Positions 26,934 through 31,071 of a DNA stretch of 64,000 nt are shown in pieces. The stretch is from assembly GCF_024298765.1 (NCBI RefSeq), contig NZ_CP101210.1. One strand, 5' to 3'. This DNA comes from Escherichia coli. GTDB taxonomy: Bacteria > Pseudomonadota > Gammaproteobacteria > Enterobacterales > Enterobacteriaceae. The notes beneath the pieces are model-generated. The model was not told where the DNA came from. It saw nothing but the letters and a program-made list of their open reading frames with translations, and ran no database searches. Position 1 is the first letter of the stretch. Every line of letters begins with the position of its first letter. The position numbers and the translations under genes are program-made.

Positions 26934-28274
26934 TCAATGCAACTCATCAAGTTTTCTCATCGCTTGTTCCCGTATTGCGCGCGTCTTACCGTTAAGCGCC
27001 AGCTGGCGGACTAAATCCAGTTCAGGGTTAACAAGCTCTAACGCCAGCAAAGGATCACGTTTCAGCCTCGCCTTTAATACATCAACTGGAAAACGGGGAT
27101 TATTCATCGCCACAATCCACCACTCGGGATCAATTTCTGCCGCCAGTACTGCAGGCGGTGTGTGGCGGTTGTTAAGTGCGCCGAACTTGAAAAATGTGAG
27201 ATTGCTTTTCGCCAGTGTACTCCACCATATACGATCCGGTTGTTTTGCCAGTACATCCAGTTGTGCTAACGCATCGGGTTCTAGTGCATAATAAACACGT
27301 AACGCTTCGTTAACCTGCGCACGGGAACTGTTTTCCTGCCTCAGAAAAAACTTCGCCCAAATATCATTTCGTGGCGTGTTTTGCTGTAATTCCTTTAAGC
27401 CTTGGGAGAGTTCGCATTATGGCAAGATCAAATGTCGCAATGTCTCGTCCTTCAAATGCAGCAACGTTGCCTTCATCCAGCATTTGCAATTCCTGCAATA
27501 ATTCAGGAGAAGACTTAGGGCGAAACAGCGCTTCTTTTTTCATCTGATTACAGACATTCCCTGCTATGCGAATATTGCTTCGCTTAAAAATTTCTTTCAG
27601 AGCATCTTCATCATTTATTAGGCCCCAATAATATGCATCAGGATTTATTATCATCAGCGCTTTTTTGACATTTTCAGTGTCATTTTTGTCACTCGCACGG
27701 ACCATGAATTCACTATTTGTCGAAGATGCAACAACAGGTGCAATTATGTCATTGATAAATATCCCGCGCGCATTAATACTTCCCTTAATCGTAGACGGAT
27801 TATCGTAATATGAGTCGATAAATACCAGTCCACTTGCATTTATCGAACCGGTAATTAACAGTGGTGAATCCGTAACTATATTCGTTGCCGTTACGTTACG
27901 TTACGTTACGTTACGTTACGTTACGTTACGTTACCGAGAATAACCCATGGATTAGAAAGAGAGAAAGTGGAAATATTACCTTTGACTGTCAAATTGCCAA
28001 GAACAATCAATTTTTGATTACTCTCTATATTACCTTCTACCATTAAATCGCCACGATGCACTTTCCAGTCCGATGCAGATAAACCGACGGGGACAAGATT
28101 CACGCTACTGTTGATAGCTTGTTCAACTTGTTGTTTATCTTCAGCGGTAGCCGCAGAAAAAAATGGTTCAATATCAACTGCATTTACAACACATCGAAGT
28201 TCCGCCTGTACTGGAAGACTCAGCATAAACAGGGGAAGTAAACCTATCCAGCTGCAAATCCTGGGCTTAAACAT
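26934..28274 (-). pseudogene. ydbD: Decayed ydbD-like gene for a secreted protein: N-terminal signal-peptide segment, stop inside a pentanucleotide repeat, further frameshift near 27364-27420
   Basis: Three collinear minus-strand coding segments in different frames (28274-27921, 27900-27364, 27417-26934), hand-translated; sits where ydbD lies between ydbC and ynbA. Confidence 0.5.
27889..27933. repeat. Perfect pentanucleotide microsatellite (CGTTA)9; TAACG on the coding strand
   Basis: Read directly: cg + ttacg x8 + ttac; the minus-strand reading frame terminates at TAA inside the array. Confidence 0.95.
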
Positions 28275-28334
28275 ATGCACTCCATGCCATTAAAAAAGAA
28301 TAAATATCCTCCGGCATAGCCGGAGGTTTTTCAA

Positions 28335-29046
28335 ATGCGCCTATAAGGCTCTCTTACCAGCCGCGCCCTAACAGGCGCACACGATCTGACATTTGCATCC
28401 AACTTCGTTACTTACGGCCCGTAAACGGGCTGCCCGGATAGGGAATCGATAACTGCTCTCCCATTTTATCCTCTTCAAGCTGGTGCTTTATGTAATCCTG
28501 TATCTTCGCCGTGTTCTTACCCACCGTATCGACGTAGTACCCTCTGCACCAGAACTCTCTGTTCCTGTATTTGAATTTCAAATCACCAAACTGCTCGTAA
28601 AGCATCAGACTGCTTTTCCCTTTCAGATATCCCATAAAGCCGGATACACTCATTTTGGGCGGGATCTCCACAAGCATATGGATATGATCTGCACAGCATT
28701 CAGCTTCAAGAATCCGTACGCTTTTCCACTCACACAGCTTTCTCAAAATACTGCCTATTGCTCTACGCTTCTCTCTGTAGAACACTTGTCTTCGGTATTT
28801 TGGCGCAAAAACTATGTGATATTTACAGTTCCATCGGGTGTGCGCTAAGCTCTTTTCGTTCCCCATTGGGACCCCCTTTTGATTTCTTGTTTGACACTTG
28901 CAGTTGCCAGACCGCAAGGTGTTTTAACAAATCAAAAGGGGTTTTAATAACTGGCTCAAAGCTGAAAGCTTTCCGGAACCCCCAGCCTAGCTGGGGGTTT
29001 TCTGTGCACAAACAAAAGGGAAATGCATCTTTCCCTTTTGTATATT
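28335..29046 (-). mobile_element. IS200-type insertion sequence (IS200/IS605 family), ends approximate
   Basis: Y1 transposase gene plus upstream hairpins (aacccccagcctagctgggggtt; aaaagggaaatgcatctttccctttt); no terminal inverted repeats expected; ends estimated from ~707-bp size. Confidence 0.8.
28408..28866 (-). CDS. tnpA: IS200 transposase TnpA (Y1 / HUH family)
   Basis: 152 aa from MGNEKSLAHTRWNCKYHIVFAPKYRRQVFY... with HxH motif (HIHMLVEIPP). Confidence 0.9.
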   Translation of the reverse strand: MGNEKSLAHTRWNCKYHIVFAPKYRRQVFYREKRRAIGSILRKLCEWKSVRILEAECCADHIHMLVEIPPKMSVSGFMGYLKGKSSLMLYEQFGDLKFKYRNREFWCRGYYVDTVGKNTAKIQDYIKHQLEEDKMGEQLSIPYPGSPFTGRK

Positions 29047-30139: not shown

Positions 30140-30730
30140 TTACTGTTTCGGTCGCAGATTCTCATCAAATACCAGGCGCTGCCTGCCAGGTTCAACTTCC
30201 CGCAATGGCTCAACTTGATGCAACGTCTGCTTACTGCGTGTCACCAGCACCTGATACTCATGCGTGCCCTGCTTTTTCCATGCCAGTTCCTGCTCACTAA
30301 GTTCACGAATCGCTTTTGCCGGGCTGCCGACAATCAGGTAATTAGCAGGCATTTCTGCTTTGGCTTTCACAAATGCGGAAGCGCCAACAATGCTGTTCTC
30401 GCCAATCACCGCACCGTCCATCACTACCGCGTTCATACCCACTAATGCATTGCGGCGGATAATGCAGCCGTGAAGGATAGCGCTATGACCAATATGCCCA
30501 TCTTCTTCCACGACAGTATCCTGATCGGGAAAACCGTGCATAACGCAATTATCCTGAATGTTCGCGCCATCTTTCACCACGATACGACCGAAATCGCCAC
30601 GCAGGCTGGTATTTGGCCCAACGTACACGCCCTTGCCGAGAATAACATCGCCGATCAATACCGCTGTCGGATGGACAAAACTCTCTTCTGGCACAAACGG
30701 AGTCAGACCGTCTATCTGATAAATTGGCAT
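30140..30730 (-). CDS. paaY: Phenylacetate-pathway hexapeptide-repeat protein PaaY
   Basis: 196-aa [32 protein letters not shown]... Confidence 0.9.
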
Positions 30731-30880
30731 AACGCCTCCTGTTCAATATTCAAGCCGCCAAAACGTTGAAAATACAGGCTTCCCGGCGCAGGCAATTCAC
30801 CGACCGAGGTTTCACCTTTTTCACTAACGAACGCTAAAGCAGCAGGCGCTACGCGCTGATAAAGTTTGCCGATAAAGGTT
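30712..30880 (-). pseudogene. paaX: Probable 3' remnant of paaX (C-terminal ~55 codons only)
   Basis: Minus-strand ORF ends 19 nt into paaY as in a paaX-paaY operon; upstream part of the ORF is antisense to the feaR remnant; boundary approximate. Confidence 0.45.
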
Positions 30881-31071
30881 TGGTAGTCGCGCAATATATC
30901 CGTAACCGTCGTCTCGATTTTTGTGCAGATGCGATTCGCCATGCCGCAGATGATGAAAAACTGGCAGGCATTGGCTTTCATTGGGGATTTTCCGACCAGA
31001 GTCATTTTTCAACGGTATTTAAGCAACGCTTTGGGATGACGCCAGGCGAGTATCGACGTAAATTCCGCTAA
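30880..31071 (+). pseudogene. feaR: 3' remnant of an AraC-family regulator, probably feaR (C-terminal HTH only)
   Basis: 63-aa ORF ending ...GFSDQSHFSTVFKQRFGMTPGEYRRKFR, a typical AraC C-terminal helix; convergent with ydbL as feaR is. Confidence 0.5.

Follow-up and report, generated by a model that had tools for sequence, protein, structure and literature searches.

The 64,000-nt stretch of E. coli DNA analysed here (the window) carries a perfect pentanucleotide microsatellite inside the remains of the gene ydbD, and this tract is probably a lineage-specific VNTR that evolves neutrally in a dead copy of the gene. The tract and the degenerate unit beside it are:

27889-27933, minus strand (ydbD sense; CGTTA on the plus strand): (TAACG)9 microsatellite, one TAA per unit, from TRF, the sequence itself and the 4–21 units found in 75 complete genomes.
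27883-27888, minus strand: degenerate flanking unit G-CAACG; K-12 and 3,746 genomes read GGTAACGTGACGGCAACG.

Direct reading of 27889-27933 gives nine perfect CGTTA units on the plus strand, and TRF returns 27889-27934 with period 5, 9.2 copies, 100% matches, zero indels and consensus CGTTA. These are short perfect units joined head to tail, as in a microsatellite or VNTR, and the only TRF repeat in the 64-kb window with a period of at most 6 and at least 3 copies; from first principles, such a tract would be expected by chance about 64000 × 4^-40, or roughly 5e-20, times. Across 100,044 bacterial and archaeal species, with one genome scanned per species, (CGTTA)≥5 turned up in just 13 stretches, none of them enterobacterial, and a review citing Gur-Arie 2000 (PMC7015867) gives zero pentanucleotide repeats for E. 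coli K-12. The initial annotation had described the tract as perfect and unusual for E. coli, a description that these data bear out. Together with the ancestral TAACG-TGACG, the G-CAACG flank is a putative cryptic proto-repeat.

Long arrays of CGTTA also occur in unrelated bacteria (L023 23-97, four arrays in L024, L012 541-590 and L018 148-172): Moorena producens 3L has several, of up to 15 units, while the numbers are 11 in a Rhodopila MAG and 9 in Brachyspira catarrhinii. Elsewhere in the window, the intergenic stretch 2006-2068 is bordered by two minus-strand ORFs (1224-1892; 2231-2824) and contains a 21-nt sequence in perfect duplicate (GACATAGTCAATGCCGAAAAA x2), overlapped by a 15-nt duplication (TGCCGAAAAAGGGGC x2.1) that lies beside an inverted repeat (AGCCCCTTTT / AAAAGGGGCT).

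Our survey covered 5,426 complete genomes of E. coli, and some 3,930 of them have the ydbD repeat site. The expanded tract is present in 75 (1.4%), with 4–21 units in 15 alleles (mode 9–10, mean 9.8). Carriers number 1 with 4 units, 1 with 5, 6 with 6, 9 with 7, 7 with 8, 16 with 9, 15 with 10, 6 with 11, 5 with 12, 1 with 13, 2 with 14, 1 with 15, 2 with 18, 1 with 19 and 2 with 21 (total 75), which corresponds to a Simpson diversity of tract length of about 0.88 within the carrier clade. The 90-nt flanks are 100% identical among the 60 carrier matches listed, so that strains differ by whole units between conserved flanks. The ancestral imperfect allele GTAACGTGACGG was found in 3,746 of the 5,426 genomes by a search with GGTAACGTGACGG that doubled as a positive control. 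The perfect two-unit tract is present in 0 of the 5,426, no three-unit allele was seen among the complete genomes, and a JGI metagenome scan for alleles of 2–8 units gave no match.

Tract length changes faster than the surrounding DNA. No SNP separates the strains GPEC1165 (21 units), GPEC1042 (19 units) and GPEC464 (18 units) in 28 kb of flank; in the same comparison, CS18F (5 units) is 1 SNP from this trio, the window (9 units) is 2 SNPs from it and strain 200177 (6 units) 4–6 SNPs. Length change thus outpaces point substitution, running from 5 to 21 units at 0–2 SNPs per 28 kb. A single poultry collection from Georgia holds alleles of 8, 9, 10, 11, 12, 18, 19 and 21 units. The initial annotation had predicted a hypervariable locus, and the comparison across genomes agrees: 15 alleles among 75 carriers, with 18, 19 and 21 units at 0 SNPs.

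Assemblies are error-prone at tandem repeats, and a sequencing or assembly artefact had been raised from the start as a possible explanation of the tract. However, the tract stands in 75 independent complete assemblies from many laboratories, the differences are always whole units, and the exact truncated product is recorded in 2,556 blocks of public assemblies. Strains sequenced twice are concordant (E166, 9/9; 2020N21-246, 7/7), which indicates that the length differences are biological. We regard the chance of an artefact as negligible, and the first observation, that the tract is a real feature of the DNA, is confirmed.

The carriers include APEC O78:H4 strains and APEC O2-211; the latter belongs to ST117, a major E. 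coli lineage that is avian-pathogenic and, in humans, extraintestinal (PMC6256689, for APEC O2-211). The ST117-like subclade can be recognized by an insertion upstream of ydbD:

28301-29009, minus strand: IS200C, 26 nt upstream of the ydbD ATG, with tnpA at 28408-28866; in the ST117-like subclade only.

IS200C is present in the ST117-like carriers and absent from 2014C-3338, 2017.09.02CC, DETEC-S792 and SRR11410523, and is therefore a marker of the subclade. It has a terminator-like hairpin at 28308-28326. The element lies in the 63-nt pdxI-ydbD spacer, adjoining the pdxI terminator hairpin (29012-29041). Three complete-genome carriers are without it, 2014C-3338 (4 units), 2017.09.02CC (7 units) and DETEC-S792 (15 units), and these are 170–390 SNPs apart in 28 kb; the tract therefore predates the ST117-like subclade. 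On the same differences we rejected a single recent clone as the source of all 75 carriers.

The gene that holds the tract has been reduced to the following parts:

26934-28274, minus strand: ydbD pseudogene, bactofilin-like/DUF2773, 768 aa when intact, from PGAP, synteny and 94–96% identity to intact alleles.
28203-28274, minus strand: signal-peptide-like N terminus MFKPRICSWIGLLPLFMLSLPVQA, with a basic n-region, a hydrophobic core and VQA, read from the translation.
27921-28274, minus strand: truncated ORF of 117 codons plus a TAA from the third repeat unit, from the ORF list and translation.
27364-27705, minus strand: 113-aa ORF between the repeat and the deletion junction, from the ORF list and translation.
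27380-27395, minus strand: junction of a 1001-nt frameshifting deletion, with microhomology AAGGAATT, from alignment to an intact allele.
26934-27113, minus strand: C-terminal DUF2773 remnant, a stranded 59-aa ORF; PF10971 matches the equivalent 57-aa ORF.

In a genome identical over this stretch, PGAP labels 26934-28274 'DUF2773 domain-containing bactofilin, frameshifted; internal stop'. The gene order pdxI-ydbD-ynbA(BCD) is that of K-12 and, with the sequence identity to b1407, identifies the locus as the orthologue of K-12 ydbD, which is intact at 2307 nt (b1407, 768 aa). Pfam places DUF2773 at residues 688–768 of K-12 YdbD (E 2e-45) and a weak bactofilin match at 78–138 (E 0.05); the repeat site, codons 115–118, falls within the latter. 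In the window no intact ORF runs to the C-terminal DUF2773: the tract supplies stops, 1001 nt are deleted (2307 + 35 − 1341 = 1001 nt) and DUF2773 is left stranded. Alignment to the closest intact allele reveals the +35-nt tract and the deletion and no other indels. The 113-aa ORF at 27364-27705 is in the frame that ydbD would have with two units, and its end, ...GITAKHATK*, is caused by the deletion. For annotation, two or more separate lesions account for the pseudogene calls at ydbD, and the length of the tract is uninformative about function.

On the minus strand the TAACG repeat translates as ...ILGNVT*RNVT*RNVT*, with a TAA in every frame within 15 nt. Since each unit brings one TAA and successive 5-nt units fall in different frames, all three frames are closed from three units upwards, as translation of the three phases of TAACG confirms and as the initial annotation had argued; every expanded allele accordingly encodes the identical 117-aa N-terminal stub. 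The same annotation put the truncation at about 119 residues, a length that holds when counted from the GTG at 28280, whereas the PGAP start in the identical genome, the ATG at 28274, gives 117 aa. Exact look-up in public protein records found no 119-aa product from the GTG start; gene callers take the ATG at 28274. The N terminus MFKPRICSWIGLLPLFMLSLPVQA looks like a Sec signal peptide, consistent with the proposal that the tract lies in the gene of a secreted-type protein.

Coding repeats that switch genes on and off are well known in other bacteria. In Neisseria opa, CTCTT repeats in the leader-peptide region produce phase variation through slipped-strand mispairing, and in Haemophilus influenzae the tetranucleotide contingency loci of lic and mod are kept by selection for switching. 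The repeats of Type III mod genes have been surveyed (PMC5909438). The initial annotation suggested an on/off switch for a truncated secreted product, and the ydbD tract could be read as a contingency locus of this kind, with slippage toggling ydbD or the truncated product in the manner of opa CTCTT: its 5-nt unit is not a multiple of three and lies within the coding region (codons 115–118), in the first third of the gene, the encoded protein begins with a signal-peptide-like segment, and the tract is highly variable in length. It shares with opa the pentanucleotide unit, the position in the 5′ part of an exported-protein gene and the change of length by whole units, and with lic and mod the long perfect tracts, units of at least 4 nt and an instability largely independent of mismatch repair.

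By contrast with opa, in which CTCTT is translatable in every frame and one length in three is ON, the TAACG of ydbD stops all frames, has no ON allele and is followed by a gene whose remainder is deleted; unlike lic and mod, it lies in a pseudogene that shows no sign of selection. No frame reads through the tract at three or more units, and the observed expanded alleles (4–21 units) all give the same 117-aa product. Instead of ON and OFF alleles side by side upstream of an intact ORF, there are 0 of 75 carriers ON, and the downstream 1001-nt frameshifting deletion is fixed in 75 of 75; because the deletion lies downstream in every complete-genome carrier, contraction of the tract is unable to restore the protein. 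In the ST117 subclade, IS200C and its terminator-like hairpin also part the gene from upstream DNA. On/off switching of full-length YdbD by the tract is refuted, and a contingency locus of any form is very improbable.

The tract might act on the plus strand as a (RYVTL)n ORF, or tune the downstream ynbABCD: an open 53-aa ORF is listed at 27885-28046, with a TTG start and (RYVTL)3 encoded by the tract, and a promoter-like site at 27855-27882 scores 10/12. Yet promoter-like sites are as frequent in shuffles (4 found, 4.5 expected), the TTG start has no Shine-Dalgarno-like sequence upstream in our reading of the sequence, the ORF arises merely as a by-product of the tract, and the start of ynbA is about 1.1 kb distant. 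A plus-strand function is exceedingly improbable, and we judged both the 53-aa ORF and the promoter-like site spurious by-products of the repeat.

The deletion junction is found in exactly 75 of the 5,426 complete genomes, the same count as the tract, and because the two co-occur in 75 of 75 carriers, the complete genomes alone cannot order them. We therefore draw on an exact look-up of hypothetical ydbD products in about 15 billion public proteins. The six places read among the 2,556 blocks that record the 117-aa stub have 7–11 units and the deletion. The 291-aa product of the deletion with an unexpanded site, which for the two-unit allele would end ...GITAKHATK* on translation, is present in 36 blocks, including NCBI GDC61684.1; a homology search with this product listed just other truncated YdbD forms, whereas the exact look-up found the exact protein. 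Perfect (TAACG)2 accompanies the deletion in Logan SRR11410523, which has 2 mismatches to the window in 20.5 kb and is without IS200C, and in NCBI GCA_961209845.1. The imperfect allele accompanies the deletion in ERZ24909976 (75 kb), ERZ24911354 (73 kb) and ERZ18534468, and also on several metagenome contigs of ST117-like background.

These unexpanded alleles on the deletion haplotype suggest that the deletion came first and that the microsatellite arose in a gene already dead. We consider it probable that the deletion preceded the expansion; some of the unexpanded examples are metagenome contigs, and this order is thus not proven. The proposal that the repeat inactivated the gene becomes unlikely, because the same deletion is present with the ancestral non-repeat site in public assemblies.

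The opposite order, in which repeat expansion was the first lesion to kill ydbD and the deletion and IS200 came later, is left open by the 75/75 co-occurrence in complete genomes. It can also appeal to neighbour-joining trees of the 8.5-kb and 6.9-kb flanks, in which imperfect, two-unit and expanded alleles are interleaved, as they could be if the unexpanded alleles were secondary, through contraction and short-patch recombination or as chimeras. Common E. coli haplotypes match this haplotype exactly over the interval −110 to +108 nt about the site, so that neither short recombinant patches nor chimeras among metagenome contigs would leave a trace, and clade members differ by only 0–4 SNPs in the 2.9 kb around ydbD (the exceptions being DETEC-S792 with 9 and 2017.09.02CC with 21), so that contraction, intraclade recombination or chimeric assembly could mimic the picture. 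However, several assemblies combine the deletion with the imperfect GTG allele, two single-strain-looking contigs of 73–75 kb among them; expansion first would need contraction together with an exact A-to-G reversion, or a patch of <220 nt; and among the complete genomes and the public-assembly places read, no assembly had the tract without the deletion. We judge expansion first to be unlikely.

On one metagenome contig (ERZ27238354 k111, MEGAHIT; L043 1-1815), two tandem 291-aa ydbD remnant ORFs are called, probably an assembly artefact; this contig calls for caution over metagenome contigs in the argument on the order of events.

The interleaving has a further possible cause. The tract may have been born independently several times in sublineages of the deletion clade: each of the three allele states (imperfect, (TAACG)2 and expanded) is seen on two or more flank backgrounds, and the states are interleaved in both trees. 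If this reflects repeated births and not recombination, a site-specific mutational mechanism is implied. The same G-to-A change would, however, be required at least 3–4 times, and we saw no sequence that could template it; recombination within the clade is invisible among members 0–4 SNPs apart in the 2.9 kb around ydbD, and several of the imperfect examples are metagenome contigs. Multiple births are, in our assessment, rather improbable.

Our preferred reading, a neutral VNTR in a dead gene, would have the following history. The starting state would be that of most E. coli, GG-TAACG-TGACG-GCAACG (Gly-Asn-Val-Thr-Ala-Thr). In the clade that includes avian and extraintestinal ST117, ydbD would most likely already have been broken by the 1001-nt deletion when a synonymous G-to-A change (GTG to GTA) created two perfect TAACG units. 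Replication slippage may then have enlarged the two-unit tract, whose length, free of selection, would drift by whole units between 4 and 21, faster than flanking SNPs accumulate. Five-nucleotide loops would evade efficient repair by MutS; Parker and Marinus are said to have found in 1992 that MutS-dependent repair is inefficient on loops of this size. The slipped strands might be stabilised by hairpins that pair ACGT with ACGT on either strand. The two tract strands fold with minimum free energies of −11.3 and −11.7 kcal/mol and are no stabler than dinucleotide shuffles (z ~0 to 0.5); since the shuffles fold equally well, the hairpins are no evidence beyond composition.

The wider ydbD record in the species includes other losses. 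The gene is truncated elsewhere by unrelated lesions, in 321-, 227- and 434-aa clusters of 603, 1,449 and 905 members. In about 970 complete genomes nothing matches the ydbD region, and about 490 match its 3′ end alone (27300-27400, as against 27400-28290), which points to other, larger ydbD deletions in the species. Judged from these losses, ydbD is dispensable in nature. The truncated YdbD forms seen were P0001, P0005, P0007, P0009 and P0010, one of which is an A-rich-run frameshift giving ...NQMKKKRCFALSLLLS. A 165-aa ORF starting MVRASDK (P0015) was rejected as a lead; it comes from a frameshifted lineage unrelated to this one, in which the imperfect allele is present and the tract is not.

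At another place in the window, all that is left of paaX is its C-terminal end (30712-30864), which borders directly on part of a helix-turn-helix gene (30865-31071). This clade lacks both the paa operon and the ydbA autotransporter; in K-12 and S1-ESP-03-A, ydbA is found at this place. On the metagenome contig ERZ27280847, paaD-paaX are intact, yet the ydbD deletion is present. Three genes downstream of ydbD, ynbD is a pseudogene in non-IS200 sublineages, with an internal stop or a split into 274 and 142 aa (L003 14337-15629; L010 9388-10679; L037 and L039 14739-16055). The neighbourhood ydbD-ynbABCD may, as the state of ynbD suggests, be decaying more widely in part of the clade.

The tract can also be set beside the repeats by which E. 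coli is typed. The generic E. coli MLVA scheme uses CVN001-017 and CCR001 (PMC3407997, PMC3877011), markers at which, as at ydbD, the copy number of a short tandem repeat separates near-identical isolates. Those loci were defined on reference genomes without the ydbD tract, K-12 and O157 carrying the non-repeat allele, and CVN016 varies in ST10, ST38, ST405 and ST648, lineages in which the tract is absent. In the literature searched, which did not extend to the original MLVA primer tables, ydbD is not paired with 'tandem repeat' and the repeat is not printed. The generic MLVA loci do not appear to include the ydbD tract. The simple-sequence repeats of K-12 are comparable in being slippage-prone in a genome without contingency loci, but according to PMC7015867, which covers Gur-Arie 2000 and Metzgar 2001, they reach at most 4 tetranucleotide units, whereas the ydbD tract reaches 21 pentanucleotide units (105 nt). 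As a bacterial VNTR, the tract is a fresh example of a known phenomenon.

The tract could sharpen typing of ST117 at the level of the outbreak or flock, with 15 alleles in 75 carriers and variation between isolates identical over 28 kb; at no more than about 105 nt, it is readable from ordinary short reads. Long microsatellites with units of more than 3 nt are almost absent from E. coli, and a birth in a dead gene with precursors still circulating would make a useful case for the origin of repeats and their drift without selection. Public data may even hold every stage in the life of a microsatellite on one haplotype (imperfect, two-unit and 4–21 units), a doubtful proposition at present. If it is true, wild E. 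coli would offer a rare natural system for the length threshold and the expansion or contraction bias of a hairpin-capable repeat expected to evade mismatch repair.
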